Notes under the pieces: generated by a model
The model's input: only the letters and a program-made list of their open reading frames with translations
Database searches by the model: none
What the model was told of the DNA's origin: nothing
NCBI GenBank assembly: GCA_963662335.2
Contig: CAXXVD010000002.1
Location: 512,001-576,000 of the forward strand
Source of the DNA: Chloroflexota bacterium
Lineage (GTDB): Bacteria; Chloroflexota; UBA11872; VXOZ01
DNA: 64,000 nt
Direction: 5' to 3'
Shown: one piece after another, positions 4,052 to 58,018 of the stretch
How positions within the stretch are numbered: the first letter of the stretch is position 1
How the letters are laid out: each line of letters begins with the position of its first letter
Translations under genes and position numbers: made by a program

Positions 4052-5082
4052 GCAGCGGCGCGCTCTATTCGCGACCGTTTGACTGCGGCGCGGCGGCGCT
4101 CCGCATCGGCGCGTTGTGCGTCTTGCTGGTGTTCTGCGGCGCATTCCCGCCGCCGCTCGGCGCATCCGCGCGCGCAAACGCCGCGGCAACCGCGGTAGGC
4201 GAGGAAGCGCGCTCTCCCAGGCAAGAGGGACGGGGTGAAGGCGCCGCGCGCTCGGCCCGGCCCGACCTGCGCGCCGGGGAGCGCTTCACCGTATTGCTGG
4301 TCGGCCTCGACCGGCGGCAGCCCACGGAACAGTCGCGCAGCGACGTCATCATGCTGCTCAGCATCGAGCGCAAGAGCCGCTCGCTCTCGCTGCTCTCGAT
4401 TCCGCGCGACCTCTGGGTAACCATCCCCGGCTATGGCTGGTACCGGGTCAACGCGGCATATTTCTTTGGCGAGGTCTACCAGGGCGATGGGCCGGCGTTG
4501 GCGCGCCGGACGGTTGAGGCGGTCTTCGACGTGCCTATACATGCCGTGGCGGCGGTTGACTTTGCTTCCTTCACCGCCCTCGTCGACGCCTTTGGCGGGG
4601 TTGACGTAACGGTTGCCAAGACCCTCGTCGACGACCGGTATCCCACGCTGGACTACGGCTACACGCGCATCGTCATTCCCGAGGGCGTGCAGCACATGGA
4701 CGGCGCCACGGCGCTGGTCTACGCCCGCACGCGCCACCCGGACAACGACTTCAAGCGCATGGGCCGCCAGCAAAACTTCATGCTCGCGGCGCGGACGAAA
4801 CTCTTTGCGGAAGAGTCGATCCGCGCGTTCCCCCTCCTCTACAAGCAGTTCAATGAGGTAATCGAGACCGACCTCACGCCGGGCGAGCAACTCTACTTGC
4901 TGCGCGACCTCTACCTGCTGCGCGACGCGCCGGTCAAGGCGCGTGTCATCGAGCCGCCTTTGGTCTACAACTACGTGACGGCCGGCGGCGCGCACGTGCT
5001 GCTGCCGGATTGGGAGCGCGTGCGGCCGATCATCGACGAGCTATTCGGCGGCGCGGTTGAGGAGCCGGCGGCCGCGGAGTGA
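4048..5082 (+). CDS. LCP (LytR-CpsA-Psr) family protein
   Basis: N-terminal hydrophobic segment; motifs LLVGLD, RSDVIM, SIPRDLWV, ALVYARTR and DFKRMGRQQ. GTGA overlap with the dnaE stop. Confidence 0.9.
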   Translation: MSSGALYSRPFDCGAAALRIGALCVLLVFCGAFPPPLGASARANAAATAVGEEARSPRQEGRGEGAARSARPDLRAGERFTVLLVGLDRRQPTEQSRSDVIMLLSIERKSRSLSLLSIPRDLWVTIPGYGWYRVNAAYFFGEVYQGDGPALARRTVEAVFDVPIHAVAAVDFASFTALVDAFGGVDVTVAKTLVDDRYPTLDYGYTRIVIPEGVQHMDGATALVYARTRHPDNDFKRMGRQQNFMLAARTKLFAEESIRAFPLLYKQFNEVIETDLTPGEQLYLLRDLYLLRDAPVKARVIEPPLVYNYVTAGGAHVLLPDWERVRPIIDELFGGAVEEPAAAE

Positions 5083-5187
5083 AAGACGATGCGGCTGCCG
5101 CCTGAATGCCGCGCGTTGCGTAACCGTCGCTGCCCCGAAAACAGCGGCGGTTACGCAAAGCTCCTGGCGTTGAACCTCTGGCGGGAT

Positions 5188-5221
5188 GGGGTAGGGGCAC
5201 GACATGTCGTGCCCCTACCCC
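5188..5221. repeat. REP-C perfect palindrome GTAGGGGCACGACATGTCGTGCCCCTAC
   Basis: Further copies at 27079-27106, 48542-48569 and 57586-57614. Confidence 0.9.
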
Positions 5222-5284
5222 GTCCCTGGCGTGGGACAACCTTTCGCGCGACCAGGATGGGATAGGCGGGCGGGGGACAAGCCC

Positions 5285-5498
5285 CAATGTTGTCGCATTA
5301 ACGTAGCGCGGGGGCTTGTCCCCCGCCGGTGTGCAAGGCACGGAGGGCGATCGCCGAAGGTTTCCCTCCGGCGGATGACGCCAACCTCTTGACCTTAGGA
5401 AGACGCAGGTTGCAAACCTGCGCTACCGGAGAAGACCTGCGCTACCGGAGAATTTGTACGCGAGCTTTGCCGTAGTTCTGTTTAATGCCACAGCATTG
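5285..5498. mobile_element. MITE family 1, copy 1 (214 bp), inserted in a REP-A
   Basis: TIRs CAATGTTGTCGCATTA / TAATGCCACAGCATTG. 11-bp direct repeat GGGACAAGCCC at 5274-5284 and 5499-5509. Reverse-complement homologue at 7983-8177. Confidence 0.85.
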
Positions 5499-5535
5499 GG
5501 GACAAGCCCTGGCGCTACGGGGATGCGCAACGTAG

Positions 5536-5559
5536 GCGGGGGACAAGCCCCCGCGCTAC
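5536..5559. repeat. REP-A (GCGGGGGACAAGCCCCCGCGCTAC), dispersed GTAG-type REP
   Basis: Same 24-mer on either strand at 18, 73, 128, 5303, 7931, 8136, 14945, 27198, 46424, 47244, 47370, 49374, 57720 and 57763. Confidence 0.92.
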
Positions 5560-5590
5560 GAGGATGCGTGAGGCAGTGGCGTCCAAAGGG

Positions 5591-5665
5591 GGAGCGGGAG
5601 ACGGGACTCGAACCCGCGACATCCAGCTTGGAAGGCTAGCGCTCTGCCAACTGAGCTACTCCCGC
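5591..5665 (-). tRNA. tRNA-Gly (anticodon TCC)
   Basis: Reverse complement reads GCGGGAGTAGCTCAGTTGGCAGAGCGCTAGCCTTCCAAGCTGGATGTCGCGGGTTCGAGTCCCGTCTCCCGCTCC. It forms a cloverleaf with a GTTCGA T-loop. The 3' end encodes CC but not a full CCA. Confidence 0.97.
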
Positions 5666-5833
5666 AGTGCGCTCCGCGCCTCTCCAGTATAGCCCAGCGG
5701 CCGGCGCGGTGAAATGGGATTCGGCGCGCCGGGCGGGTGTTTCACGGCTCTCCCGCCGCGCGACGGTTCGCGCCGCCGCTCTGCCGGCGAGGCGGCTTGC
5801 GGCGGCGGCGCGATGCGGTATAATCCAGATACT

Positions 5834-6187
5834 ATGAAACGGCAATGGTCCGGACAGCGTCGCTGGGGCGCGTACGTCTTGCGGCTCCTCACGGAGCGCC
5901 CGCGCGAACTCATCGAGCCGTCGATCGACGAGAGTCCCGTGCCCGGGTGGGTGTTGATCTGGTCGTTGATCCTCATCAAGCTCTTCATCGGCGGCGCAAT
6001 TCTCTTCTTCTTCAGCGCGGAAGAATCACTCATCTTCGTCATTGGCACCCATTGGATGGCGCCGGCGGCGATCGTGGCGCTGCTCTTGCCGCTGGGCGTC
6101 TATTGGGCGCGGCTGTGGCGAATGCGGCTGCGGCGCGCTGAGTTGCAGCGCGCCGAATGGCACGTCGAGCGGCCGCGCAAACGGTAG
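5834..6187 (+). CDS. Small hypothetical membrane protein (2 TM segments)
   Basis: Two hydrophobic stretches. ATG 5834 lies 9 nt after TATAAT (5819-5824). The start is uncertain. Confidence 0.6.
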   Translation: MKRQWSGQRRWGAYVLRLLTERPRELIEPSIDESPVPGWVLIWSLILIKLFIGGAILFFFSAEESLIFVIGTHWMAPAAIVALLLPLGVYWARLWRMRLRRAELQRAEWHVERPRKR

Positions 6188-6288
6188 GATTCCATTTCGT
6201 ATCGCGCTCGGGAATGCCGCCGGCAAGAGATTGAGTTTCACTCGCCGCGCCGTACAAGCGCCGCAAAGCGGCAATAGCCGCTCGCCAC

Positions 6289-6317
6289 TTGACTACCGCG
6301 CCCGCTTAGACTATGCT
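6289..6317 (+). promoter_or_regulatory. Sigma70-type promoter
   Basis: TTGACT-N17-TATGCT upstream of the solute-binding protein gene. Confidence 0.6.
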
Positions 6318-6451
6318 TACGCTGCAAGCATGGGGTGAATCCCATGTGTGGTTGTTTGTGGAGAAGACCCCGTTTGTTAGGGGTACATCCTCTGTTCTCA
6401 GGTGCGAGTGTGGAAACAGGGGAAGCGTATGCCACTACAGGAGGTTTGAGC

Positions 6452-7810
6452 ATGCGAAAGAGGTTGTCCCGCCGGACGTTTCTCGGCGGAAGCGCGCTGA
6501 CCGGCGCGGGGCTGCTGCTGGCGGCCTGCGGCGCGCAGCCGGTGGCAATGGAAGAGGCGCCGGCTGAGGAAGAGGCGAAGGAAGAGCCGAAGCCCGCAGC
6601 GCAGGAAGAGGCCAAGGCGCCTGAAGCCGCAGTGGTCAACTACCTGCACGTGGACCTGGCCCAGAACGAGATCTGGCAGAACTCCTGGGGTAACATCTTC
6701 GATACCTTCGCGGAGAAACATCCGGACCTCGAACTGACCGTAACCGGCACGAGCTTTGGCGAACTGCCGGCCAAGGCCGGCGCGGCACAGGCCGGCGGCA
6801 TCGCGTTCGACGCGGTGTACGGCTACTTTGCCTGGTTGGGCCCGTTCATCGAATCCGAGATTATTACGAATCTCGACCCCTTCCTGGCCGCGGACGCCGA
6901 CGTCTCTGCCGATGACTTCTATCCGGCCACGACAGAGAAATACCAGGGCAAGATCTACGGCTTTGCCTGGTTCAGCAACGGCAAAGAGATTTGGTTCAAC
7001 AAGAATCTCTTCACCGAAGCCGGCCTGAAGAATCCGGCCGAGAAGGAAGCCGACGGCGAGTGGACCTGGGATGCGCTGCTGGAAGACGCCAAGTTGCTGA
7101 CCAAGATGGAAGGCGACGAAATCGTGCAGGGCGGCGTGCGGCTCTACGCCGGGTACACGTCCTACCTTTGCATGTACGTCTGGGCGTACGGCGCGGACTT
7201 TTGGGACGAGGGCTGCACGGCCCCGACGTTTACGTCCGACGCGTTCCGCGAAGCGGTGCAGTTCCACGTGGACGTGGCCCTGAAGCACAAGGTCATGGGC
7301 GGCTCGTACACGGAGGGCACCCAGGCCATGTTCAACACCGGCTCGTTCAACGTGCGCACCTTCGAGGCGCAGATCACGCCGAACAATCTCTTCGAGATTG
7401 GCATGGCGCCGATGCCGAACGGACCGCAAGGGCGCGTCATCGCGCTGGCGAACAACGCCATGTACCTCGGCGGCTCCGGTGTGAATCCCGACGGCGGCTG
7501 GGAGTTCCTGAAGCATACGTTCAGCGCCGACGTGGTTGACGCCGTGGCGGCGATGGGCGGCGGGCGCTACGTGGCCAACAAGAACGTTACGCCGGCCACG
7601 ACCACCGACTACGAAAACGTCGACGTCTATCTCATGCAGGCTGCCAACAGCCGCATTACCCCCACGATCCTGAAGCAGTCCGAGTTCAACGCGGGCTGGC
7701 GGGAGACCTGGGACGAGATGGTCGCCGGCACGCTGACGGTGCCCGAGGGCCTGGAGCGCACGCAGGGTCAGTTGGAGAACTGGCTGGCCGAGGGCGGCTG
7801 CATCCAGTAA
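6452..7810 (+). CDS. Carbohydrate ABC transporter solute-binding lipoprotein (Tat signal)
   Basis: SRRTFL twin-arginine motif, LAAC lipobox, WFNKNLFTEAGL and WTWDALL (family 1 SBP). AGGAGG RBS. Confidence 0.88.
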   Translation: MRKRLSRRTFLGGSALTGAGLLLAACGAQPVAMEEAPAEEEAKEEPKPAAQEEAKAPEAAVVNYLHVDLAQNEIWQNSWGNIFDTFAEKHPDLELTVTGTSFGELPAKAGAAQAGGIAFDAVYGYFAWLGPFIESEIITNLDPFLAADADVSADDFYPATTEKYQGKIYGFAWFSNGKEIWFNKNLFTEAGLKNPAEKEADGEWTWDALLEDAKLLTKMEGDEIVQGGVRLYAGYTSYLCMYVWAYGADFWDEGCTAPTFTSDAFREAVQFHVDVALKHKVMGGSYTEGTQAMFNTGSFNVRTFEAQITPNNLFEIGMAPMPNGPQGRVIALANNAMYLGGSGVNPDGGWEFLKHTFSADVVDAVAAMGGGRYVANKNVTPATTTDYENVDVYLMQAANSRITPTILKQSEFNAGWRETWDEMVAGTLTVPEGLERTQGQLENWLAEGGCIQ

Positions 7811-7847
7811 GCGACGAAGACTGTTCGACGCCTAATGCGCCGAAAGC

Positions 7848-7888
7848 AGAGGCGGAGCACCCCCGCATGGGGGCGCTCCGCCTCTTTC
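7848..7888 (+). terminator. Intrinsic terminator-like hairpin
   Basis: AGAGGCGGAGCACCCCC-GCAT-GGGGGCGCTCCGCCTCT followed by TTC. Confidence 0.6.
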
Positions 7889-7982
7889 ACTTGATGTCGC
7901 GGCGGTTAGGAGTGATCCTGGCGGCCGGGTGTAGCGCGGGGGCTTGTCCCCCGCCGGGATGGTGTAGGGGCGGTTCGCGAAC

Positions 7983-8177
7983 TAATGCTGTCGCATTAGA
8001 CAGAACGACGGCAAAACTCGCGTCCAGAATCCCCGGTAGCGCAGGTTTGCAACCTGCGTCATGGTAGGGTCAAGAGGTTGGCGTTGTCTGCCGGAGGGAA
8101 ACTTTCGGCAATCGCCCTTCGTGCCTTGCACACTGGCGGGGGACAAGCCCCCGCGCTACGTTAATGCGACAGCATCA
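7983..8177. mobile_element. MITE family 1, copy 2 (195 bp), inserted in a REP-D
   Basis: TIRs TAATGCTGTCGCATTA / TAATGCGACAGCATCA. 10-bp direct repeat GTTCGCGAAC at 7973-7982 and 8178-8187. Confidence 0.88.
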
Positions 8178-8249
8178 GTTCGCGAACCGCCCCTGCGTCT
8201 TGGCAAGGAAAATGGCGCGTAACCCCACCCTAGAAGCGGTTTCTCGAAC

Positions 8250-8320
8250 TGTCATTCCGAGCGCAGCGAGGAATCTAGGGACGCTAACACCCTAGACTCC
8301 TCGCTACGCTCGGAGTGACA
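8250..8320. repeat. REP-B inverted pair (TGTCATTCCGAGCGCAGCGAGGAATCT ... AGATTCCTCGCTGCGCTCGGAATGACA)
   Basis: Paired copies also at 19251-19353, 51837-51946, 53614-53736, 59546-59635, 61522-61597 and inside MITE-2. Single halves near 15077, 39648, 47173 and 48442. Confidence 0.9.
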
Positions 8321-8379
8321 TGACACGCAGCCCCGCAAAGCTATCACGTCTGGCTCTATTGAATCCGCGAAAATCCCAC

Positions 8380-8408
8380 GTGACTTTATTCACAATCTTC
8401 GCTATAAT
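8380..8408 (+). promoter_or_regulatory. Sigma70-type promoter for hisC-hppA
   Basis: GTGACT-N17-TATAAT. Confidence 0.5.
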
Positions 8409-8548
8409 GCCTCAGTTGTAAATGCGCCGGCTTGGACCGGTTTGTACGCCTGTGGATTCTTTCCCTTGGCGCCGCTCATGGCTGCCGGGGAACTTCAGCG
8501 AACGAGCGAGAGACCGGCGCGGCGCGTGCAAGGGAGGCGAGGTAAACA

Positions 8549-9631
8549 GTGATTCCGGCTGCGCGAAAAGCCGTCCAGGAGATGTCGCCCTATGTGCCTG
8601 GGGAGCAGCCCCAGGGCGCGGGCTGGACGAAACTCAACACGAACGAGAATCCCTACACCTCGCCCAAGGCGCTGGCGGCGCTGGAAGGCCAGGCCTCGCA
8701 GGCGCTTTCGCGCTATCCCGATCCGTTGGCGCGGGACTTGCGGCAGAAGTTAGCCGAAATCTACGAAATCGACGTCGACTGGATCTACGTTGATAACGGC
8801 TCGGACCAGATTCTCAACCTCACCTTTCGCGCCTACGTAGACCGGGGCCAGACCGTGGCCTACACCTTTCCCACGTACCCCTATTACGAAGTGTGGGCGC
8901 ACATGCAGGACGCGGAAATCCAGACGGTCGCGCCGGGGCCGGAATTTGCCGTGCCCATCGACGAACTGGCCGGTTTGCAGGCCACGCTTACGGCAATTTC
9001 CAACCCGAATTCGCCCACCGGCACGTTCACGCCGCCCGCGGACATCGAGCGTTTGGCGCAGCAGTGTGACGGTTTGGTGGTCGTGGACGAGGCGTACGTG
9101 GACTTCGCGGCGGCCTCCGTCTTGCCCCTGGTGCGGCAGTATGACAACATTATCGTGTCGCGGAGCATGTCCAAGTCGTTCGGTCTCGCCGGAGTCCGTG
9201 TTGGATTTGCCTTCGGACAGCCCGAACTCCTGGAGCCGCTGTGGAAGCTGCGCGACTCATACAGCGTCAGCCGCCCCAGCCAGGCAATTGCGGTGGCGAC
9301 GCTGGACGACTACGACTGGATGCGGACGGTCTGCGCGGAGATCGGCGCGCGCCGGGAGCGGGTGGCGCGGCGGCTGGCGCGGGAGTTTCCCTGCATTGTC
9401 TATCCCTCGGACGCGAACTTCCTCTTCGTCGAGCCGACGCAGCACGCGGCGGCGGACGTTTTCGAGGCCTTGAAAGCGCAAAAGGTGCTGGTGCGCTACT
9501 TCCGCCAACACGGTTTGGAGCGCTACCTGCGTATCACGATTGGGACCGAAGAAGAGATGGAAACATTCTTCAGCGCCCTCAATGCGGTGTTGGAGCAAAG
9601 TCTAGTGCCAATCACGGGAGGTACAGAGTAA
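8549..9631 (+). CDS. hisC: Histidinol-phosphate aminotransferase
   Basis: KLNTNENPY, RYPDP, NPNSPTG, VDEAYVDF, PLP lysine in RSMSKSFGLAGVRVG, and LRITIG. Confidence 0.9.
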   Translation: MIPAARKAVQEMSPYVPGEQPQGAGWTKLNTNENPYTSPKALAALEGQASQALSRYPDPLARDLRQKLAEIYEIDVDWIYVDNGSDQILNLTFRAYVDRGQTVAYTFPTYPYYEVWAHMQDAEIQTVAPGPEFAVPIDELAGLQATLTAISNPNSPTGTFTPPADIERLAQQCDGLVVVDEAYVDFAAASVLPLVRQYDNIIVSRSMSKSFGLAGVRVGFAFGQPELLEPLWKLRDSYSVSRPSQAIAVATLDDYDWMRTVCAEIGARRERVARRLAREFPCIVYPSDANFLFVEPTQHAAADVFEALKAQKVLVRYFRQHGLERYLRITIGTEEEMETFFSALNAVLEQSLVPITGGTE

Positions 9632-11790: not shown

Positions 11791-11820
11791 CGTAGGGGCG
11801 GTTCGCGAACCGCCCCTACG
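11791..11820. repeat. REP-D perfect palindrome CGTAGGGGCGGTTCGCGAACCGCCCCTACG (intact, empty target site)
   Basis: Same sequence as the palindrome split by MITE-1 at 7964-8197. Confidence 0.85.
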
Positions 11821-11926: not shown

Positions 11927-12073
11927 CTGACAGGGGTAGGTAAATGTCATTCCGAGCGCAGCGAGGAATCTAAAGATGCTGGTCTTGCATCGCTGTGCTT
12001 TAGATTCCTCACTCCGCTGCGCTCCGTTCGGAATGACAGGTGAGGTCGATTGTTGAATGCTTACCCCTATCAG
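11927..12073. mobile_element. MITE family 2, copy 1 (147 bp)
   Basis: TIRs CTGACAGGGGTAGG / CTTACCCCTATCAG. Flanks CAGGGGAGAGG and CAGGTGAGAGG (11 bp, 1 mismatch). Internal REP-B pair. Confidence 0.82.
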
Positions 12074-12124
12074 CAGGTGAGAGGGCCGGAGTGAGGGGAA
12101 AGTCCTACAAGACGGGGTACTCTA

Positions 12125-13802: not shown

Positions 13803-14894
13803 TCACACTTCTACCGGGCCTGTGAACACGTCTGCGGGAATGAAGCTGGCTCGTGCGCTTGAATGCACGTGGTCGACGCCTTCGGTGGTGACCTGGGCGA
13901 GGGCGGTGAAGTGGGTGTTTTCGCCGCTGACGCCGCTGCGGTTGCCGCCGCCGTGGCCGCGCAGCCAGTGGGGGTCGATGAGTTGCTTGCCCTGCCAGAG
14001 GCCCCGGGTGGCGAGCAGGTGGCCGAAGCGGGCGATGTCGGCGGCGCACATCACCGCCCAGCCGGGGCCGCTGCGCACCGGGTGTCCGGCGACGCGGTAC
14101 GGCGGGTCGAGGTAGGTGTAGGAATCCGGGATCGTGGGGTAGAAGTACTGCTGGGATTGCACGGTCTCGCCGGTGTACCAGTCCCAGTTGTCCGGCGCGA
14201 TGCCGATTGTGCCGAAGAGCCGTTCGTCCAGCACCTCTTTGAGGTCGCGTTGCCAGACGTGCGTCAGCGCCTGTCCCATGCGCCAGAAGCCGGCGCTGCT
14301 GTAGTGCTCCTGGGTGCCGGGCGGCACGTGGGCGTAGAGATCGTAGAAGGGGTCGCCGGTCCAGTTCGCCCAGGCGGGACAGGTCTTGTCGGCGTCTTCT
14401 TGGGTCTTGCCCGCGCGTCCGGCGGCATAGTGGCTGCCGATTTCCATGGGAAAGCCGCCCTGATGGGTGCGGCCAAACTGCGTGCCGATGATGTGCCGCC
14501 AGGTGAGATTCTTATGATTGCCCTCGTTTAGATGCTTGTGAGGATGCGAGAGTTCGCCCGCGCCCGTCCACGATTCATGGATGGGCGCGTCCACGTCCAG
14601 TAGGCCGTCCGCCGCCGCGAAACCGAGCAAGACCCACATGAAGGCCTTGCCCATGGAGGCGGTCTGGAAGCGGTAGCGCGGGTCGCCCCAGGTGTGCACG
14701 CAGTAACCGCCGCGGGTGAGCATCACGCCCCACTTATTGCCGGTGTGGTCTTCGCCGCCGAATTTCGCGCCGTGGAAGCCGAGCGTGCGCAGCCAGGCCT
14801 CGAACCGGCGGGGGTCTAGGCCCGCCTTTTGCGGGGTGATGGTAACCCAGTCTTCTTCGGGATAGGTTACCCAAGAAGGGATATTCCTACTCAT
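13803..14894 (-). CDS. Serine hydrolase (beta-lactamase/AmpC-like fold)
   Basis: SxxK in TASMGK, HYSS, and DIARFGHLLATRGLWQGKQLI. Confidence 0.75.
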   Translation of the reverse strand: MSRNIPSWVTYPEEDWVTITPQKAGLDPRRFEAWLRTLGFHGAKFGGEDHTGNKWGVMLTRGGYCVHTWGDPRYRFQTASMGKAFMWVLLGFAAADGLLDVDAPIHESWTGAGELSHPHKHLNEGNHKNLTWRHIIGTQFGRTHQGGFPMEIGSHYAAGRAGKTQEDADKTCPAWANWTGDPFYDLYAHVPPGTQEHYSSAGFWRMGQALTHVWQRDLKEVLDERLFGTIGIAPDNWDWYTGETVQSQQYFYPTIPDSYTYLDPPYRVAGHPVRSGPGWAVMCAADIARFGHLLATRGLWQGKQLIDPHWLRGHGGGNRSGVSGENTHFTALAQVTTEGVDHVHSSARASFIPADVFTGPVEV

Positions 14895-14960
14895 GCGTGT
14901 TGTCTCTCCCGATCAAGTCTGTGGCGCCTTTTGCAAAGCCGGAGGCGGGGGACAAGCCCC

Positions 14961-15020
14961 CGCGCTACGGTGATGCGGTACCGCGCGGGGCGCGCTACGG
15001 TGATGCGGCCGCGCGCGGGG
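14961..15020. repeat. 30-bp tandem duplication starting within a REP-A end
   Basis: CGCGCTACGGTGATGCGG...GCGCGGGG occurs at 14961 and 14991. Confidence 0.75.
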
Positions 15021-15176
15021 TAAGGCCCCACTGCGATTTACGTTCCTTGCTGTGCCATTAGAATTTTCGGTGCGCACTAGATTCCTCGCTGCGCTCGGAA
15101 TGACATGTGAGTGCGACCACGTGAGTGATAGATTGAATTGACAACGCAGGGCGCGACACATTTGGCTTCGGCTGAG

Positions 15177-16343
15177 CTACCTGGGCATCTCGCCTTTGCG
15201 CCGGTTGGGGCCGGGCCGGAAGTCCGGCACGTGCATGAGTTTGCTGCCTTGCGCAATGGATTCGGACGCCAGGACGGCCGGTGCGGCGGTGTCCATGGCC
15301 TTGTAGAGGTCGAACTCCAGCGGCGTGCCGTGCAGCACCGCGTCGCGGAAGGTGGCGTGGATGTAGTAGTCGGTATCGCTGTGGCCGCTGCCGCGCGCTT
15401 CCGCCGGCGCGTCGGTGCGCTGCGGGCGCCAGTCCACCTCGGCGTGGTCGTGCATCTGGGCGTCGGCCAGCCAGAGCTTGGGCTTATCCCGCAGCGAACG
15501 CGCCAGTTCCACCGAACCCTTGGTGCCCATGATGTGGCACCAGTGGTTGTCGCGGGGCGGCGTGGGCTGGGTGTAGGCCACGGCCAGGCGCATGAGCGTA
15601 TCTTTGGCCGTCTTCATGATGGCCAGTTGGATGTCCGGCTGCCGGATTTCCTCGTGGATGTAACTGGGCGAGCGGGTGCTCATGGCGGTGACCTCGGTCA
15701 CGCGGTCGTCGAGCACCATCAGGATCGGGCTGAGTTCGTGGGGCAGGTAGTGAATCGGCGGCATGAGGTTGATCCACGACGGTTCCGCGTCGGGGGTATT
15801 GGGCAAGTCGGCTATGGGCACGTGTTCCGCCGTGCCGCGCCTGCGGTGGTAGCGATACGACTCCTTATAGCCAATGTACTGGCCCTCGCAGAACGTAATC
15901 TTGCCCAGCTTGCCCTCCCGCACCAGGTCGCGCCAGGCGGCAAACTCGCCGGAGTGCCGCCGCTGCTCGCCAAGCTGGTAGACCTTGCCGCTGTGCTCCG
16001 CCGCCAGCACGATGCGCCAGCAGTCCTCCAGGGTGTGCGCGGCCGGAACCTCGGAATTGACGTGCTTGCCGGCCTCCAGCGCCTGCGCCGCCAGCGCGCC
16101 CTGCTCCTGGCAGCGCACCGTGAGCGCCACCGCGTCCACGTTGTCATCGGCCAGGAAGTCTGCGTAATTGTCGTAGGCGGCAATCGACTGCGGGTCTTGC
16201 AGCGGTTCGAGCGACCGTTCGTGCAATTCGGTGAGCGGGTCGCAGATGGCGGTGACGCGATAGCCGTTGAAATCGTCCAGCATCTTCAACCAGTGGCGGC
16301 CGCGCGGGCCAAGTCCGGTCAGGCCGATGCGAATCTCTTCCAC
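15177..16343 (-). CDS. Gfo/Idh/MocA family oxidoreductase
   Basis: IGLTGLGPRG Rossmann motif and AGKHVNSEVPAA. Confidence 0.85.
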   Translation of the reverse strand: MEEIRIGLTGLGPRGRHWLKMLDDFNGYRVTAICDPLTELHERSLEPLQDPQSIAAYDNYADFLADDNVDAVALTVRCQEQGALAAQALEAGKHVNSEVPAAHTLEDCWRIVLAAEHSGKVYQLGEQRRHSGEFAAWRDLVREGKLGKITFCEGQYIGYKESYRYHRRRGTAEHVPIADLPNTPDAEPSWINLMPPIHYLPHELSPILMVLDDRVTEVTAMSTRSPSYIHEEIRQPDIQLAIMKTAKDTLMRLAVAYTQPTPPRDNHWCHIMGTKGSVELARSLRDKPKLWLADAQMHDHAEVDWRPQRTDAPAEARGSGHSDTDYYIHATFRDAVLHGTPLEFDLYKAMDTAAPAVLASESIAQGSKLMHVPDFRPGPNRRKGEMPR

Positions 16344-16553
16344 GTTTTTCTTCTCCAGTTTACGAATAGTAGATGCACGGTTGCGGTTCTGTTCCGCATA
16401 CGAGTCTACAGGCTTGGCGAGATTCTTGCATGACCCGCAGCGGCGGGCGGAAGGACGCAGGTTGCAAACCTGCGCTACCGGGCAAGAAGGCGAGATGGAG
16501 AGAAGACAATCGGGCGAGTTTTCCCCTTACGCCGGCCCTCTCCCCAGGGAGAA

Positions 16554-16699
16554 CTGAAAAGGTATATAAATGTCATTCCGAGCGCAGCGAGGAATCTAAA
16601 GATGCTGACTTTGTAGGGCTGTGCTCTAGATTCCTCACTCCGCTGCGCTCCGTTCGGAATGACAGGTGAGGTCGACTATAGAATGCCTACCCCTGTCAG
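16554..16699. mobile_element. MITE family 2, copy 2 (146 bp, degenerate left TIR)
   Basis: Colinear with 11927-12073. Right end CCTACCCCTGTCAG. CCTCTCCCCAGGGAG repeated at 16537-16551 and 16700-16714. Confidence 0.75.
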
Positions 16700-16788
16700 C
16701 CTCTCCCCAGGGAGGGGGAGTGAGTGCCCGCGGCGGTTTGGGACGCTCAACCGGCGGCAGTGGCTAGGAGCGCGGCGGCGGCCGGGGC

Positions 16789-17304
16789 TTAGTAGCGGCC
16801 GCGGGCGTACTCTTTCGCCACCCGGTCCACCTCGCGTTGGGCGTCTTTGGCGGCCAGGGTCTGGCGCTTGTCGTAGAGTTTCTTGCCGCGGGCCACCGCG
16901 ACTTCCACCTTCACCCGGCCGTTGCGCAGGTAGAGGCGCAGCGGGATGACGGTCTGTCCCTTCATCTGGGCGTGCTGGCGCAGCGTGGCGATTTGGTCCC
17001 GGTGGAGCAGCAGTTTGCGCGGTCGCGTGGCCTCGTGATTGACGTAGCCGCCGCGTTGATAGGGCGAGATGTGCGCGTTCCAGAGCCAGGCCTCGCCGTC
17101 GATGACGCGCACGAAGCCTTCAGTCAGATTGACGCGGCCGGCGCGCACGGACTTAACCTCAGTGCCCAGCAGCGCCAGTCCCGCCTCGAAGGTGGCGTCT
17201 ATGTGATAGTCGTGGCGGGCGCGGCGGTTCGTGGCCACCACCAGGTTGTTGGGGTCGTGGACTTTGGCGGCCCGGCGCGCTTTCTTGGTCTTGGCGGAAG
17301 GCAT
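16789..17304 (-). CDS. smpB: SsrA-binding protein SmpB
   Basis: NRRARHDYHI, EAGLALLGTEVKS, RKLLLH and ARGKKLYDKR. Confidence 0.97.
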   Translation of the reverse strand: MPSAKTKKARRAAKVHDPNNLVVATNRRARHDYHIDATFEAGLALLGTEVKSVRAGRVNLTEGFVRVIDGEAWLWNAHISPYQRGGYVNHEATRPRKLLLHRDQIATLRQHAQMKGQTVIPLRLYLRNGRVKVEVAVARGKKLYDKRQTLAAKDAQREVDRVAKEYARGRY

Positions 17305-17394
17305 AGGTAGAGCCTGTCATCGGAGCGGCGCGCCGGAAGCCCAATGCCGGAACGTACCGTGGGGCCGGGGGCGCGCAAAGTTGCGGAACGCGCG

Positions 17395-17913
17395 TCACGA
17401 GGCGGCGTGTTGTTCCCGCGCCCACTGCTTCAGGTAGTCCCGCGCCTCCTGCGTGCGCGGATAGCGGTTCACGATCTCCCAGAAACGCCGGTTGTGCGAC
17501 GGTTCCAGCAGATGCGCCATCTCGTGCATCAGCACGTAGTCGCGCACCCACGCCGGAAACTCGGCCAGTACGTGCGAAAGGCGGATGGTCTTGCGGTGCA
17601 CGCTGCAACTGCCGAAGCGGCTGTTCTGGTTGGTGACGTAGGTTGCGGAGGCGATTTCCAGCTTGCCCCCGAAGTATTTGGCGTTGAGTGCGGCGGCGCG
17701 CTTGCGCAGCGGCTCGCCGTCATTGAGCAGCCGCTTGGTTTCGTGCCGTTCCACCTGCGCGCGCACTTTGGCCACGTAGTGCGCCTCTTCATCCTTGCTC
17801 AGGTGCGCCGGCACCAATACGCGCAGTTTACCGTCTCGAAACTGGGCGCTGACGGTCTTGACGCGCTGGCGGCTGCGGACTATTTCGATGTCGCGCGGGT
17901 CAATGGTGTACAT
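17395..17913 (-). CDS. M48/YgjP-like (DUF45) zinc metalloprotease-family protein
   Basis: RFGSCS and DYVLMHEMAHLLEPSHNRRFW (HExxH). The start is uncertain. Confidence 0.8.
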   Translation of the reverse strand: MYTIDPRDIEIVRSRQRVKTVSAQFRDGKLRVLVPAHLSKDEEAHYVAKVRAQVERHETKRLLNDGEPLRKRAAALNAKYFGGKLEIASATYVTNQNSRFGSCSVHRKTIRLSHVLAEFPAWVRDYVLMHEMAHLLEPSHNRRFWEIVNRYPRTQEARDYLKQWAREQHAAS

Positions 17914-19548: not shown

Positions 19549-19582
19549 GTAGTGATAAACTTAAGCAGGAGGCTTGGTGCAG

Positions 19583-20590
19583 ATGACTCGAATTCGACCC
19601 ATGACTCGACGAACCGTATTGGTTGCCGGTCTGGCCGGCGTGGGCGGTGCTTTGCTCGCTGCCTGCGGTACCGTGGCGGTGCAGCCGGCGGAGGCCCAGC
19701 CGGAGCCGGCGGCGGAAGCAGCCTACGCGCCGGTAACCATTGAGAACTGCGGCGTTACCATTACGTACGACCAGCCGCCGCAGCGCGCCGTGTCGATGGC
19801 GCAGCACGCTACCGAAGTGATGTTGACCTTGGGGCTGCAAGACCACATGGTCGGCACGGCCTACCTTGAAGATCCGATTCTGCCCGATGTCGCCGAGGCG
19901 TACGCAACGATTCCCGTGCTCTCGGACACGTATCCGTCCCGCGAGGTGTTCCTGGCAGCGGAGCCTGACTTCGTCTACGGCGGTTGGGTGAGCGCCTTCC
20001 GCGACGAGGTGGCCGGCTCGCGCGAGAGCCTAATGGAACTGAACATAGGCTCGTATCTTGCCCATGCGAACTGCCTGGAAGCGAAGGCCACCGTCGAGGA
20101 TGTCTTTGCCGACTTCCTCAACATCGGCAAGATCTTCGGTATTTCGGACCGGGCGGAAGCGTACGTGGCCGAGAAGCGAGAGCGCCTGGCGGAAATCAAC
20201 GCAAAGACCCAGCCGGCGGACCCGAAGGTCAAGGTCTTCGTCTTCGACAGTGGCGACGAAGCCCCGTATACGGCGGCGGGCACGGGTATCGTGAACGCGC
20301 TGCTGGAAGCGGCCGGCGGCGTCAACATCTTCGCGGACGTGGAAGGCGGCTTTGCCACGGTGAACTGGGAAACCGTCATCGAGCGCGACCCGGACGTGAT
20401 CGTGCTGCACCATGCCACGTGGTCCACGGCGGAAGAGAAGATTGAGTACTTGAAAGACACCGAGGTACTCGCGGCGCTAAGGGCTGTGCAGGAAGAGCGC
20501 TTTGTCATCGTGCCCTTCACGGCCACGCAGCCGGGTCCCCGCAGCATCGACGTCATCGAGACACTGTTCCAGGGCTTCTATCCTGAGTAG
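19583..20590 (+). CDS. Iron-chelate/cobalamin-type ABC solute-binding lipoprotein 1
   Basis: TRR signal, LAAC lipobox, PVTIENCG..PQRAV and VNWETVIERDPDVIV (class III SBP). Confidence 0.9.
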   Translation: MTRIRPMTRRTVLVAGLAGVGGALLAACGTVAVQPAEAQPEPAAEAAYAPVTIENCGVTITYDQPPQRAVSMAQHATEVMLTLGLQDHMVGTAYLEDPILPDVAEAYATIPVLSDTYPSREVFLAAEPDFVYGGWVSAFRDEVAGSRESLMELNIGSYLAHANCLEAKATVEDVFADFLNIGKIFGISDRAEAYVAEKRERLAEINAKTQPADPKVKVFVFDSGDEAPYTAAGTGIVNALLEAAGGVNIFADVEGGFATVNWETVIERDPDVIVLHHATWSTAEEKIEYLKDTEVLAALRAVQEERFVIVPFTATQPGPRSIDVIETLFQGFYPE

Positions 20591-23820: not shown

Positions 23821-23875
23821 AAGGTTGAGATTGTGAGTGAGAGGTAAACGTGCAATTGCGGAAAGGACTTTGGAA

Positions 23876-24898
23876 GTGACCAATTCTCGTCGCATGACCC
23901 GACGCGGCCTTCTTGCCATCGGTGTGGCAGGCGCGGGCAGTCTCCTGCTAGCAGGCTGTGGCACGGTAGCTGCCCCGCAACCGGCGGCGGAGCCGGCAGA
24001 GCCGGCGCCAGAGGCCGAGACCGCTTACACGCCCGTAACCATCGAGAACTGCGGCTTTACCATTACGTACGACCAGCCGCCGCAGCGCGCCATTACGCTC
24101 TCTCAGGAAGCGACGGAACTGATGCTGGCGTTGGGTCTGCAAGACAGCATGGTTGGCACATCGTATCTCAGAGACTGGGTGCACCCTGATTTCCAGGCGG
24201 CCTACGACCAGATTCCGGTACTTGCCGAGAAATATCCTTCACATGAGGTCACTCTGGGAACGGAGACCGACTTCGTTTACGCTGCCTTTGTAAGCGCCTG
24301 GAATCGTGAAGATGTGGCAGGGCCGCGCGATGCGCTCTTGAAGCTTGGCATCGCGTCGTACCAGTCGGCCGCCAATTGTAAAGAGGGCAAGGTGACCGTT
24401 GAGGATGTATTCGAGGACTTCCTGAAGATCGGGCAGATCTTTGGCGTGTCGGAGCGTGCCGAAGCGTACGTTGAAGAGCAGCGGGCGCGCTTGGCGGAAA
24501 TCCGCGCCAAGGCGGGACCGCGCGACCCGAAGGTCTCGGTCTTCATCTATGACGGTGGCACTGATTCGCCATACGCCGCGGTTGGCACGGGCATGGGGAA
24601 TGCGTTGGTCGAAGAGGCGGGCGGGGTCAACATCTTTGCTGACGTCGAAGGCCTCTACGCGACAGTGAACTGGGAGACCGTGGTCGAACGGGACCCCGAC
24701 GTCATCGTGCTGTTCGATATGCCTGGATGGTCTACGGCTGCAGAGAAGATTGAGTACTTGGAAAGCACCGAGGCGCTTCACTCAATCAAGGCCGTGCAAA
24801 ACAAGCGCTACGTGGAAGTGCGCTTCACGGTCGCGAACCCGGGCATTTACACCATTGACACCATTGAATTGCTCGTGAATGCTTTCTATCCCGAGTAA
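23876..24898 (+). CDS. Iron-chelate-type ABC solute-binding lipoprotein 2
   Basis: Paralogue of 19583-20590. TRRGLL signal and LAGC lipobox. GTG start after AAGGA. Confidence 0.9.
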   Translation: MTNSRRMTRRGLLAIGVAGAGSLLLAGCGTVAAPQPAAEPAEPAPEAETAYTPVTIENCGFTITYDQPPQRAITLSQEATELMLALGLQDSMVGTSYLRDWVHPDFQAAYDQIPVLAEKYPSHEVTLGTETDFVYAAFVSAWNREDVAGPRDALLKLGIASYQSAANCKEGKVTVEDVFEDFLKIGQIFGVSERAEAYVEEQRARLAEIRAKAGPRDPKVSVFIYDGGTDSPYAAVGTGMGNALVEEAGGVNIFADVEGLYATVNWETVVERDPDVIVLFDMPGWSTAAEKIEYLESTEALHSIKAVQNKRYVEVRFTVANPGIYTIDTIELLVNAFYPE

Positions 24899-24970
24899 TT
24901 GATACGCATTCCAAACTTGCTGTGAATGCGTGGTAGTAGCTTTCGCGTAATTGCGGAAAGGACATTGAAC

Positions 24971-25993
24971 GTGATCAATGCTCAGCGTATGACCCGACGC
25001 GGCCTTCTTGCCATCGGTGTGGCAGGCGCGGGCAGTCTCCTGCTAGCAGGCTGTGGCACGGTAGCCGCCCCGCAACCGGCGGCGGAGCCGGCAGAGCCGG
25101 CGCCAGAGGCCGAGACCGCTTACACGCCCGTAACCATCGAGAACTGCGGCTTTACCATTACGTACGACCAGCCGCCGCAGCGCGCCATCAGTCTCTCCCA
25201 GCAATCGACGGAACTGATGCTGGCGTTGGGTCTGCAAGACAGCATGGTGGGCACGGCGTTTCTCAGAGACTCGGTTCCCTCTGATCTCCAGGCAGCCTAC
25301 GAGCGGATTCCGGTACTTGCCGAAAAGTATCCTTCACATGAGGTTATTTTGGGAGCGGAGCCCGACTTCATCTACGCTGCTTTCGTAAGCGCCTGGAATC
25401 GCGAAGACGTGGCAGGGCCGCGCGATGCGCTCATGGAACTCGGCATTGCGTCGTACCAGACGGCCTCCAACTGCAAAGAGGGCAAGGTGGTCGTTGAGGA
25501 CGTTTTCGAGGACTTCCTGAACATCGGAAAGATCTTTGGGATAGCGGAGCGTGCCGAAGCGTACGTCGAGGGGCTGCGGGCGCGCTTGGCGGAAATCCGC
25601 GCCAAGACGGCGCCCGCCGACCCCAAAGTTTCGGTTTTCATCTATGACAGTGGGGGTGATACGCCGTACGCCGCCGTTGGATCGGGCATTCTGAATGCAT
25701 TGGTCGAAGAGGCCGGCGGGGTCAACATCTTCGCTGACGTCGAAGGACTCTTTGGGACAGTGAACTGGGAGACCGTGGTCGAGCGGGACCCCGACGTCAT
25801 CGTGCTGCTCGATGCCCCAGGGTGGTCTACGGCTGCGGAGAAGAGAGAGTACCTGGAGAGCACTGAAGCGCTTGCTTCCATCAAGGCAGTGCGGAATAAG
25901 CACTTCGTGGAGGTGCTCTTCACGGCCACGCAGGCGGGCATACGCACCGTAGACGCCATTGAAACGCTGGCGAACGGTTTCTATCCCGAATAG
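24971..25993 (+). CDS. Iron-chelate-type ABC solute-binding lipoprotein 3
   Basis: Close tandem paralogue of SBP2 with the same signal and motifs. Confidence 0.9.
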   Translation: MINAQRMTRRGLLAIGVAGAGSLLLAGCGTVAAPQPAAEPAEPAPEAETAYTPVTIENCGFTITYDQPPQRAISLSQQSTELMLALGLQDSMVGTAFLRDSVPSDLQAAYERIPVLAEKYPSHEVILGAEPDFIYAAFVSAWNREDVAGPRDALMELGIASYQTASNCKEGKVVVEDVFEDFLNIGKIFGIAERAEAYVEGLRARLAEIRAKTAPADPKVSVFIYDSGGDTPYAAVGSGILNALVEEAGGVNIFADVEGLFGTVNWETVVERDPDVIVLLDAPGWSTAAEKREYLESTEALASIKAVRNKHFVEVLFTATQAGIRTVDAIETLANGFYPE

Positions 25994-26940: not shown

Positions 26941-27205
26941 GCGTGTTCCTCTTCATGCGGGTCTACGATTAGGGTGATTCAGGAGAGGGACAAGAGCAAA
27001 TGCTAGCGCATGAGCCGCCGGGCTGTAAACTGAGACGGCCGCGCACGATCTGGGGGCCTAAGTCTCTAGCGCAACGGTGTAGGGGCACGACATGTCGTGC
27101 CCCTACACCTGTTGGCGAGTCCCATGAAGGCGCTTTTGCGGCGCCCTGCCACGTCGCTGTAACCGCAATGGGGACAAGCCCCCGGGATACGGCGCCGGCG
27201 GGGGA

Positions 27206-27334
27206 CAAGCCCCCGCGCTACGCTGATTCGACACAAGCCCCTGCGCTACGCTGACTCGACGCAAGCCCCCGCGCTACGCTGACTCGACGCAAGCCCCCGC
27301 GCTACGCTGATTTGACACAAGCCCCCGCGCTACG
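27206..27334. repeat. Tandem repeat of about 4.6 x 28 bp derived from a REP-A half (CAAGCCCCCGCGCTACGCTGAYTYGACR)
   Basis: Units start at 27206, 27234, 27262, 27290 and 27318. Confidence 0.9.
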
Positions 27335-27336
27335 GG

Positions 27337-41452: not shown

Positions 41453-41493
41453 GTGTTTTGTTCTTTCACCCTCACCCTCTCCCTCGGGAAGAG

Positions 41494-41640
41494 CTGACAG
41501 GGGTAGGTACTCTATAATCGACTTCACCTGTCATTCCGAACGGAGCGCAGAGGAGTGAGGAATCTAAAGCGCCGCCCTGGAAAATCAGCATCTCTAGATT
41601 CCTCGCTGCGCTCGGAATGACATTTACCTGCCCCTGTCAG
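41494..41640. mobile_element. MITE family 2, copy 3 (147 bp), between trpD and trpC
   Basis: TIRs CTGACAGGGGTAGGTA / TACCTGCCCCTGTCAG. Flanks CTCGGGAAGAG (41483-41493) and CTCGGGGAGAG (41641-41651). Confidence 0.85.
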
Positions 41641-44867: not shown

Positions 44868-45190
44868 AAACGAAAAATGCTCGTCCCCAAAGGGACGAGA
44901 CATAGCCTCGCGGTGCCACCCTTCTTGGCCGCAATGCGCGGCCCGCTTCGTTTGCTCAAGCACTCCCCGCCAAGCGGTTTCATGCTTGCCCCAAGGTATA
45001 CGGTAGGGGTTCCGGTGGCGCCTACTTGGCAACCGCAGCAAGCAGACGCCTTGCGTCATGCGCTTGCCGGGCCGTCGTTCGGGCCACGGCTCACAGGCCC
45101 ATTCCGCTCACCGCGCGCCGCCGGGATTTCACCAGTTCCCGGCTCTCTGGAGGCCGCCTTGCGAGCGTACTCTTCCTGATCATCGCCTTT
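44868..45190 (-). ncRNA. T-box riboswitch (Trp specifier) with terminator
   Basis: On the minus strand: stem I start GGCGATGATCAGGAAGAGTA, AGAGA/GGTGAAA elements, GAA-TGG specifier (45099-45101), T-box AAGGGTGGCACCGCG (about 44910-44924), and hairpin CTCGTCCCTTTGGGGACGAG followed by a T-tract. Confidence 0.92.
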
Positions 45191-45212
45191 GGAATCTTCA
45201 CTTGTGCCTCGT

Positions 45213-47142: not shown

Positions 47143-47472
47143 GCGTGCGCTCGCTGGGGCGTGGCATTCGAGTGTCATTCCGAGCGCAGCGAGGAATCTA
47201 GCGCGCGCGGCCAGCAATCGCTATCGTCGGATTGCCAGCGTCGGTAGCGCGGGGGCTTGTCCCCCGCCAGAGGGAGACAGTAGGACGCGATAGGGCTAGC
47301 CCATATGGTACGCAGGTTGCAAACCTGCGCTACCGGACACGCGCGGCGTGGTATTCACTGCCATTCGGCGTAGCGCGGGGGCTTGTCCCCCGCCTCTGCA
47401 GGCGCAAAAGAGGACTGACCGCATCTCCGCCTCTTGACGGCGTTTGCGGTTTTGCACCGGAAAGAATCGGCA

Positions 47473-56513: not shown

Positions 56514-56571
56514 GGGCCCTAAGGCGGTTGGTTTCCGGCCTGTTAAGCCAAGACTGATAGCTTCCGGCCCG

Positions 56572-57408: not shown

Positions 57409-57817
57409 GATGCGCTCCTATGTGAGGGGTTCTGTTCGCTGCGCCCGAAACGGCCGCCGGCTGCACGGCGGCCGGCGCGCTCTTGTGGCTATTGTAACCG
57501 TCCGGCGCGGCGCGTGCTAAGCCGGTGCGCCGCGAACAGTGACGGATGTGCACAGCTATGGGTTTGGAAACACTCCCGTGTAGGCGTAGGGGCACGACAT
57601 GTCGTGCCCCCTACGCCTCTTGACAGTTTGAGTAGATGCGCAGTCTTGGGAATCTCCCCGCTAGTGCGACGGCATTAGGGGCGAGCCGCCGCGCTACCGG
57701 GTTGGCGTGGCGCAAAGAGGCGGGGGACAAGCCCCCGCGCTACGGTCTGGCAATGGGGCCGAGCGGGGGACAAGCCCCCGCGCTACGGGGTGGCGATCGT
57801 CTTTTCCCTCTCCTGTG

Positions 57818-57990
57818 CTGACAGGGATATGTATTCTATAGCCGACTTCACGTGTCATTCCGAACGGAGCGCAGCGGAGTGAGGAATCTAAAGCACAGCC
57901 CTGCCAAACCAGCAGCTTTAGATTCCTCGCTGCGCTCGGAATGACATTTACGAATTACTTTTACGAATCACTTTCACGTACCGCTGTCAG
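57818..57990. mobile_element. MITE family 2, copy 4 (173 bp, with internal AT-rich duplication)
   Basis: CTGACAGGG..GCTGTCAG ends and an internal REP-B pair. Sits between CCCTCTCCT and AGGAGAGGG. No clear TSD. Confidence 0.7.
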
Positions 57991-58018
57991 CGTAGGAGAG
58001 GGTAAGGGCAAAGCGGCG

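Follow-up and report, generated by a model that had tools for sequence, protein, structure and literature searches.

Insertion into repetitive extragenic palindromes (REPs) is established for insertion sequences (IS) of five families, and elements of the IS110 type work with a bridge or seek RNA and are without terminal inverted repeats (TIRs). ISRm22, an IS4-family element of Sinorhizobium meliloti, has ten of its ten copies in REPs, inserted on the axis of palindromy (PMC1525189; PMC2266710), and was assigned by De Palmenaer et al. (2008; PMC2266710) to subgroup IS4Sa, while IS1397, ISKpn1 and ISPsy8 of the IS3 family and IS621, ISPpu9, ISPpu10 and ISPa11 of the IS110 family are reported to insert specifically in REPs (PMC1525189; PMC3184786). 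GTAG-tagged REPs are also the units from which REPINs (REP doublets forming hairpins) are built, small non-autonomous elements that multiply within a genome (PMC3116915, PMC3337134); the GTAG/CTAC tag is typical of REPs associated with RAYTs (REP-associated tyrosine transposases), and GTAG-tagged REPs have been reported in Chloroflexi (PMC3733652). Here we analyze a 64,000-nucleotide stretch of a Chloroflexota bacterium (contig CAXXVD010000002.1, positions 512,001 to 576,000; hereafter the window) in which two copies of one short element each split a different REP at its center. We read these two as MITEs (miniature transposable elements with inverted repeats) of an IS4-family IS, which prefers the symmetric center of one REP family, REP-A, as its target and which, through the REPs that the MITE carries as cargo, targets its own copies; we give this reading a probability of roughly 85%. 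REP-axis targeting by an IS4-family element is already in print for ISRm22, and the new part is a REP-targeting MITE that itself carries REPs: no REP-targeting, REP-carrying and self-nesting MITE was found in the literature searched, which included the accessible parts of PMC10969869, PMC3184786 and PMC3733652.

The original prediction, made from the letters of the window, had described two inverted and diverged copies with 16-bp TIRs, the first with an extra 19 bp inside, each sitting in the center of a REP, and this was confirmed in every detail, with no item displaced by more than 1 bp. Copy 1 (214 bp, 5285..5498, plus strand, its REP-A-bearing end on the left) has its TIRs at 5285-5300 (CAATGTTGTCGCATTA) and 5483-5498 (reverse complement CAATGCTGTGGCATTA); copy 2 (195 bp, 7983..8177, minus strand, opposite in orientation to copy 1) has them at 7983-7998 (TAATGCTGTCGCATTA) and 8162-8177 (reverse complement TGATGCTGTCGCATTA). 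The two pair as inverted repeats over two arms, 5287-5432/8030-8175 (146 nt, 91% complementary) and 5435-5497/7984-8046 (63 nt, 87% complementary), and their alignment shows a single 19-column gap, which is the internal tandem duplication present in copy 1 only (5416..5452, plus strand; its 18-nt repeats lie at 5416-5433 and 5435-5452). Each copy carries a single REP-A and a single REP-E, as had been predicted: REP-A at 5303..5327 (GTAGCGCGGGGGCTTGTCCCCCGCC) and REP-E at about 5404..5426 (CGCAGGTTGCAAACCTGCG plus CTAC) on the plus strand of copy 1, and REP-E at about 8036..8058 and REP-A at 8135..8159 on the minus strand of copy 2. With a length below about 300 bp, TIRs, flanking direct repeats and many copies, the window elements have the properties by which bacterial MITEs are defined. 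The 16-bp TIR motif, of type YAATGCTGTCGCATTA, was found five times in the window at up to three mismatches, against 0.21 expected, and none of 100 shuffles reached five; four of the five matches are the ends of the two copies. A solo end of this first repeat family (TAATGCCGTCGCACTA, 57662..57677, minus strand) adjoins a decayed half REP-A and is the relic of a third insertion. The TIR is itself near-palindromic (TAATGC-N4-GCATTA at 5285-5300, 7983-7998 and other ends).

Of the REP-A that copy 1 splits, the left half lies at 5268..5284, and its last 11 bp (5274-5284, GGGACAAGCCC) are the left target-site duplication; the right half, at 5499..5518, starts with the right duplication (5499-5509) and has decayed, reading CCCTGGCG where CCCCCGCG is expected. 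The junctions of copy 1 read ...GGCGGGGGACAAGCCC/CAATG...CATTG/GGGACAAGCCCTGGCGCTAC, and REP-A is restored when its flanks are joined through one GGGACAAGCCC 11-mer. For copy 2, the left half of the split REP-D (7966..7982) ends with a 10-bp duplication (7973-7982, GTTCGCGAAC), which is also the start (8178-8187) of the right half (8178..8194); the junctions read ...AGGGGCGGTTCGCGAAC/TAATG...CATCA/GTTCGCGAACCGCCCCT, and joining the flanks around GTTCGCGAAC restores REP-D. Unsplit versions of both targets, whose presence the original prediction had also noted, exist in the window: an intact REP-A at 5535..5559, downstream of copy 1 and 26 bp from its right duplication, and the only intact REP-D of the window (CGTAGGGGCGGTTCGCGAACCGCCCCTACG) at 11791..11820. 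Inverted copies on either side of 5499-7982 have the geometry of a composite transposon, which might have moved the 2.5-kb segment between them (the tRNA-Gly gene and two open reading frames [ORFs]). We reject this explanation, to which we attach next to no probability, because the two targets are different and each is duplicated separately (GGGACAAGCCC flanks copy 1, GTTCGCGAAC flanks copy 2); the outer flanks of the pair are not alike.

The window contains 17 REP-A, six REP-E and four REP-B sequences, together with one intact and one split REP-D; all four families are multicopy, GC-rich stem-loops that bear the GTAG/CTAC tag. Their single-strand hairpin energies are -13.7 (REP-A), -20.4 (REP-B), -17.0 (REP-D) and -12.3 kcal/mol (REP-E), with z-scores of -5 to -8.5. 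Of 127,880 possible centers in the window, only 119 (0.09%) coincide with the axis of a palindrome whose stem is 6 bp or longer, so that two insertions out of two on such an axis are not a matter of chance. Two further REP arrangements were observed in the window. At 3-181, just before the start of dnaE, there are three tandem 55-bp units with one REP-A each. At 47244-47396 a REP-A/REP-E/REP-A cluster without TIRs resembles the MITE interior in order and style of spacing and is 75% identical to MITE positions 19-135; it could be a module of the progenitor type or a copy stripped of its ends.

The family was traced in related genomes with a species-genome scan whose query was an exact 17-mer that runs from the inner TIR into the head of the REP-A inside the element and is contained in both window copies. 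The results showed 45 loci (given here with L numbers), none of which is the window itself. Thirty-six of them, with 39 occurrences, are in three chromosomes of Chloroflexota metagenome-assembled genomes (MAGs), namely 30 in OY760183.1 (complete), five in OZ242329.1 and one in OZ244775.1; the remaining nine lie in unrelated organisms and are chance matches with no similarity past the 17-mer. The genes of the window are about 74-89% identical in DNA to those of OY760183.1, so that the window belongs to a related species, one outside the genomes scanned. There the element is 162 bp long and has the layout of the window copies (TIR, REP-A, spacer, TTGACC, REP-E, spacer, TIR), the spacers alone being different. 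At least 30 end-paired copies were found in the related genomes; 21 are exactly 162 bp and fall into nine distinct sequences, one of them present eight times and another six times, and this recurrence of identical copies indicates recent bursts of activity in OY760183.1. Three copies in that chromosome (L007, L009, L036) are 175-177 bp long, the hairpin of their internal REP-E being lengthened by 15 bp inserted in its loop. The window copies, on the other hand, look like old insertions, because they are 91% identical in the repeat alignment, their TIRs are mutated and the right flank of copy 1 has decayed. A distant-mode blastn search of copy 2 against 72,556 plasmids gave no match, and a promoter and terminator scan of 5000-8600 found no consensus site within either copy. 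A promoter had been considered in the OY760183.1 copies, where the conserved TTGACC block stands about 17 nt upstream of TACAAA; the window copies have TGCAAA at that place and the candidate was dropped.

To compare duplications and targets, ends were paired with up to four TIR mismatches and a duplication of at least 8 bp, which gave 31 rows, two of which (L031 351-2024 and L033 1864-3355) were left out because they paired a left end already used with a second right end. The resulting 29 elements (26 from OY760183.1, one from OZ242329.1 and the two of the window) bear out what the original prediction had expected of other copies in duplication length and palindrome centering: the duplications are 11 bp in 26 elements, 10 bp in two and 12 bp in one, and the center of a palindromic REP is the target in 26 of 29. 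The REP-A center accounts for 24 of these targets, among them two loop variants (L022, GGGATGAGCCC; L038, GGGACGAGCCC), and the two other palindromic targets are the REP-D of the window and GGGCGCCC-ACAAG-GGGCGCCC (L005). The three non-palindromic targets are GGGTGAGGGGG, used twice in one repeat family (L024, L036), and GCATGCTACCC (L025). Under a strict test of at least six contiguous complementary pairs about the center of the duplication, read from the pair strings by eye, 23 of 29 elements pass, against a background in which 0.09-0.14% of all centers are palindrome axes. Counted over the 39 occurrences, the sequence just outside the TIR is the REP-A center in 31 (at most one mismatch), the same with two or three mismatches in three, and some other sequence in five.

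Measured against REP-A, whose GTAG head is asymmetric, 12 MITEs are inserted head-first and 11 tail-first, which fits a two-fold symmetric target and speaks against spread by recombination through the flanks. Such spread would start from one ancient insertion, copied among the REP-A repeats through gene conversion or homologous recombination with the REP halves as homology arms, and would mean that the 11-mers are not fresh duplications; near-uniform flanks would then yield identical "duplications" automatically, and the REP-rich intergenic DNA is indeed heavily rearranged between species. Flank conversion would not produce the two orientations in nearly equal number, and it is also contradicted by five elements found in other targets, where the flanking duplications (10-11 bp) match for each element separately, and by the existence of a transposase-bearing element with the same ends and duplication (below). 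We therefore regard recombination as a very improbable origin of the copies.

The original prediction had gone further and proposed that the element recognizes hairpin structure rather than sequence, and this part of its interpretation, which as a whole is partly supported, found no support in the form proposed. If the transposase recognized the extruded hairpin or cruciform itself, any stable REP stem-loop would be a target whatever its sequence. It is in keeping with that idea that three palindromes of differing sequence are struck on the axis (REP-A, REP-D and the L005 palindrome), that REP-A with altered loops is used in L022 and L038, and that on the even-length REP-D the stagger is 10 bp, centered on the axis, instead of the usual 11 bp, so that the cuts remain symmetric. 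Yet three of the 29 targets are non-palindromic, two of them being the same 11-mer, and REP-E and REP-B were never a target among the mapped insertions, despite the presence of 40 intact REP-E copies in 125 kb of loci and although their hairpins (-12.3 and -20.4 kcal/mol) are about as stable as that of REP-A or more so. The main duplication GGGACAAGCCC moreover fits GGGNNNNNCCC, the target motif of IS231A, that is, GGGN5CCC. Since symmetric target motifs are described as general where dimeric transposases of the cut-and-paste type act on duplex DNA (PMC2577343), dyad symmetry alone is no proof of a hairpin, and we consider recognition of the hairpin itself unlikely, though less so than the other alternatives weighed here. 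Our reading is that the transposase strongly prefers a GC-rich, dyad-symmetric site of which REP-A is the best and commonest match; that symmetry counts for more than exact sequence is favored by the use of a REP with swapped stems (CCC...GGG), by the loop variants and by the 10-bp stagger on REP-D.

A candidate autonomous partner of the MITE was found in OY760183.1. The original prediction had called the element non-autonomous and of IS4 type and had suggested a search for an IS4-family transposase bounded by the same TIRs; the related genome provided one, and the 64-kb window did not. The IS (L031, 351-1544; 1,194 bp) has the same 16-bp TIRs as the MITE, with ends CAATGCTGTCGCATTA and CAATGTTGTCGCATTA, and lies in a REP-A with an 11-bp duplication (GGGCTTGTCCC); a duplication of about one helical turn and TIRs that start with 5'-CA are as expected for the IS4 family. 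Its one ORF encodes 367 aa, with the stop codon within the TIR, and the product matches Pfam DDE_Tnp_1 (PF01609; E = 7.5e-23, 81.8 bits against a cut-off of 23) and the NCBIfam IS4-family model NF033592 (155.9 bits against a cut-off of 115). The IS4 family is defined by the spacing of its DDE residues, D(60-110)D(100-150)E, and by the YREK signature (PMC2266710). In the L031 transposase D122, D190 and E298, spaced by 67 and 107 residues, are invariant among 30 aligned sequences, and so are Y291, R294, E298 and K305 of the Y-(2)-R-(3)-E-(6)-K signature (YRKRWQIELFFRWLK). An AlphaFold model of the protein (predicted local distance difference test [pLDDT] 88, predicted template modeling score [pTM] 0.86) was used for a fold search of the PDB, in which the top five hits were all Tn5 transposase (best E = 6.4e-9, TM-score 0.48-0.55), and a Tn5-transposase-like fold is thus predicted; a sequence-profile search of the PDB with the transposase alignment gave no hit at E up to 1. 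Transposase homologs of about 50% identity are plentiful in metagenomes, many of them on contigs of about 1.2-1.3 kb, and one truncated homolog (P0003) is 82% identical. In a blastn comparison with the MITE there was no match within L031 351-1544, and IS and MITE share their TIRs only, so the MITE is not a simple deletion derivative and, judged by its sequence, looks like a REP-A/REP-E module bracketed by two IS ends. Directly beside the IS (L031, 1545-2024) there is a MITE-like stretch in which the single REP-A is replaced by about seven REP-A units about 45 bp apart.

The presence of GTAG/CTAC tags on REP-A, REP-B, REP-D and REP-E, and of the TIR-less cluster at 47244-47396, would suit a different explanation, in which the element is a unit resembling a REPIN or a bacterial interspersed mosaic element (BIME), moved by a RAYT that acts on the internal tagged REPs, with the TIRs incidental. 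We give this hardly any credence: the complete copies all have the same 16-bp TIRs at their ends and, on either side, a direct duplication of 10-12 bp, as left by a staggered DDE cut; these TIRs are common to the IS4-family IS; and no RAYT was seen among the 47 ORFs of the window by Pfam. Y1/HUH transposition is not known to leave a target duplication. REPINs differ from the Chloroflexota element in being moved by a Y1/HUH transposase (the RAYT) and in being without TIRs or duplications, whereas the REPs considered here are both cargo and target of a DDE element.

Among the described REP-targeting elements, ISRm22 is like the Chloroflexota element in being of the IS4 family and in inserting on the REP palindromy axis. 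It is unlike it in being known as an autonomous IS only, no MITE partner or REP cargo being named in the accessible text of PMC1525189 and PMC2266710, and in its direct repeats, which, compared by description, are 6 bp in Tobes and Pareja and, for the subgroup, 8-10 bp in De Palmenaer, as against 11 bp here. The IS3 and IS110 elements that insert in REPs differ in chemistry and recognition, IS3-type repeats being 3 bp. IS231A of the Bacillus cereus group shares the 11-bp duplication, with GGGNNNNNCCC as its target motif (PMC2577343 Table 1), and the related MIC231 cassettes are also non-autonomous and mobilized in trans through shared inverted repeats (PMC6199540). IS231 nevertheless belongs to a different subgroup, with ends that start with CAT and elements of 1450-5400 bp (PMC2266710 Table 1); MIC231 carries genes rather than REPs, and IS231A is not described as REP-targeting in the portions of the sources consulted.

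What the original prediction had said of the ends of E. coli IS4 proved correct: the K-12 copy (insG) has ends in TAATGCC, hence the TAATG that had been quoted, and a 12-bp duplication. It is unlike the L031 IS in size (1,426 bp and a 442-aa protein, compared with 1,194 bp and 367 aa). For the IS4 subgroup, ends of the form -AATR--------WTW, direct repeats of 10-13 bp and a size of 1400-1650 bp are given (PMC2266710 Table 1). The TIR CAATGCTGTCGCATTA fits this consensus at positions 2-5 and 14-16, and the duplications of 10-12 bp agree with it; the same ends also fit the IS4Sa consensus CA------T, the length of 1,194 bp lies outside the range, and InsG aligns with the transposase over 49 aa only (BLASTP, 33% identity around the YREK motif, E = 6e-5). 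By sequence comparison, the subgroup within the IS4 family is therefore ambiguous. The closest named relatives of the transposase are of the ISRm16/ISRel1 type of rhizobia, at 26-33% identity (29% over 316 aa for ISRm16, E = 5e-28), and their TIRs share CA..GCTGTC with those described here. Two of four complete, two-ended ISRel1-type copies (L053 and L056, Rhizobium plasmids) lie on the axis of GC-rich palindromes, ...CTCGGGTCAAGCCCGAG... and ...CCAGGGTCAGGCCCTGG..., and one of four ISRm16 copies lies on the axis of another, a CCCCTCCCC-ACAAG-GGGGAGGGG hairpin, the other three not being in REPs. On the handful of copies examined, these elements differ from ours in a 9-bp duplication (with CA termini), in looser targeting and in phylum. 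Because ISRm22 and some ISRel1-type and ISRm16 copies do likewise, REP-axis insertion looks like a trait of this IS4-family branch and not an invention of the Chloroflexota element. On the Rhizobium etli plasmid of L053 (NZ_CP006989.1), a 265-bp MITE (L053, 35-299) is found 67 bp from an ISRel1-like IS (367-1638) with which it shares the TIR; both are centered in palindromes of the CTCGGG-TCAAG/CTTGA-CCCGAG type, a parallel to the Chloroflexota pair in a cultured bacterium.

That the element spreads its own potential landing sites, as originally proposed, was borne out by MITE-borne REPs that have been struck by further copies (L009, L012, L035, L037). In L035 and L037 a full copy directly abuts MITE fragments that start at the REP-A center. 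In L009 one split REP-A holds two stacked 38-bp units, each made of TIR, AC and half REP-A, followed by a complete copy; about four such stacked units are present in L012 and two in L001. Insertion into MITE-borne REP-A can be read straight from the junctions of these structures, and we infer that recombination between the direct repeats created by self-insertion gave rise to the 38-bp arrays. A similar structure was observed in the window at 27197-27345, where an intact REP-A and a decayed TIR-like stretch are followed by about five tandem 28-bp units (CAAGCCCCCGCGCTACGCTGACTCGACG); these units (27206-27345) each consist of half a REP-A and a degenerate TIR remnant and resemble the 38-bp arrays of L009 and L012.

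In its mechanism this is conventional IS4-type cut-and-paste, with a preference for symmetric targets. From what is known of the family, a transposase supplied in trans would bind the TIRs and excise the element, both 3' ends would be joined to target strands 11 bp apart, and repair of the gaps would produce the duplication. The counts show a strong preference of the transposase for a GC-rich, two-fold symmetric site of the GGG-N5-CCC type. REP-A, which is more common in these genomes than any other REP, has such a site on its axis, and insertion is symmetric about that axis and independent of orientation, with a stagger of 10 bp on the even-length REP-D. Since each MITE carries a REP-A, each insertion adds a preferred target in which later copies land, and recombination between stacked copies would leave arrays of TIR and half REP-A with a 38-bp unit. 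A wider and more tentative proposal, which we think has perhaps some truth in it and is more probably wrong than right, is that MITE and REPs are coupled in a self-reinforcing cycle, in which an IS4-type DDE element, and not only a RAYT, spreads GTAG-tagged REP-A and REP-E as cargo. The abundance of REP-E would then be largely a result of hitch-hiking. Both the 38-bp arrays and, perhaps, the 28-bp array at 27206-27345 would have arisen through repeated self-insertion with subsequent recombination. As to the stagger, 11 bp on odd-length and 10 bp on even-length palindromes, each subunit of the transposase would position its cut by reference to its own half-site and not to where its partner cuts. 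If true, each insertion splits one REP-A and delivers an intact REP-A and a REP-E, and the element makes its own targets.

Several points weigh against the reading of these elements as REP-A-seeking MITEs of an IS4-family IS. Mobilization in trans by an L031-type transposase is inferred from the shared TIRs, duplication length and target, and the IS is known from one copy in a different species: a tblastn search of the transposase against all fetched loci found L031 alone, and the window yielded no transposase (Pfam on 47 ORFs; best tblastn E 1.1). GGG-N5-CCC is not matched by REP-D (GTTCGCGAAC), by L005 (CCCACAAGGGG) or by the GGGTGAGGGGG sites, so that this motif is a provisional recognition rule. 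Either 11 or 13 bp can formally be read as the duplication at REP-A, since the C/G at the end of the TIR is identical to the target base that follows and so restores the next stem pair of the split REP-A; the targets other than REP-A favor 11. The exact 17-mer query, which includes the REP-A head, biases the sample toward young copies with that end intact, and the ratio of 122 intact REP-A to 40 REP-E in 125 kb is that of loci picked for holding MITEs, not of the genome. Finally, empty and filled orthologous sites could not be compared: L032 and window 14277-17790, and L035 and window 54440-59489, share their flanking genes, but the intergenic DNA is unalignable, and the case for mobility therefore rests on the duplications, the identical copies and the varied targets.

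A DDE transposon that has the REP center as its target and REPs as its cargo offers a route for REP spread that is independent of RAYTs, and as such it bears on the old questions of how REPs multiply and how REP-targeting transposases choose their sites. Dozens of near-identical copies are present in the related genome, and the targets on record are few in kind: REP-A in either orientation, variants of loop or stem, one palindrome of even length and a pair of sites that are not palindromic. Such a set could guide a mutational dissection of structure versus sequence in this choice. In addition, such elements inflate and scramble the intergenic DNA of these Chloroflexota, to the extent that species with genes 74-89% identical show no intergenic alignment, and they can mislead MAG assembly and annotation.

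The window region is otherwise an ordinary chromosomal stretch of a bacterium with 64% GC and contains dnaE, a LytR-family gene, tRNA-Gly (5591-5665, minus strand), an H+-pyrophosphatase gene, smpB and the trp operon. In an Rfam search of the whole window at gathering thresholds, the tRNA-Gly and a T-box leader were the only hits, with none on the MITEs or the REPs; the T-box leader (RF00230, 99.5 bits; 44888-45192, minus strand) is located upstream of the trp-operon gene for anthranilate synthase. The ends of a second repeat family are GTCATTCCGAGCGCAGCGAGGAATC and the reverse complement of it, and 14 of them are present in the window; the family forms long, hairpin-like units at 8247-8322, 11942-12074, 16568-16700, 41493-41627, 57817-57951, 59539-59678 and other places, one of them 60 bp downstream of where copy 2 has its right duplication, and probably represents a further family of MITEs. 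Three paralogous Peripla_BP_2 genes (19574-20590, 23837-24898 and 24926-25993) are located beside a FecCD/ABC transporter, and the latter two are 94% identical in DNA over the first 300 nt compared.

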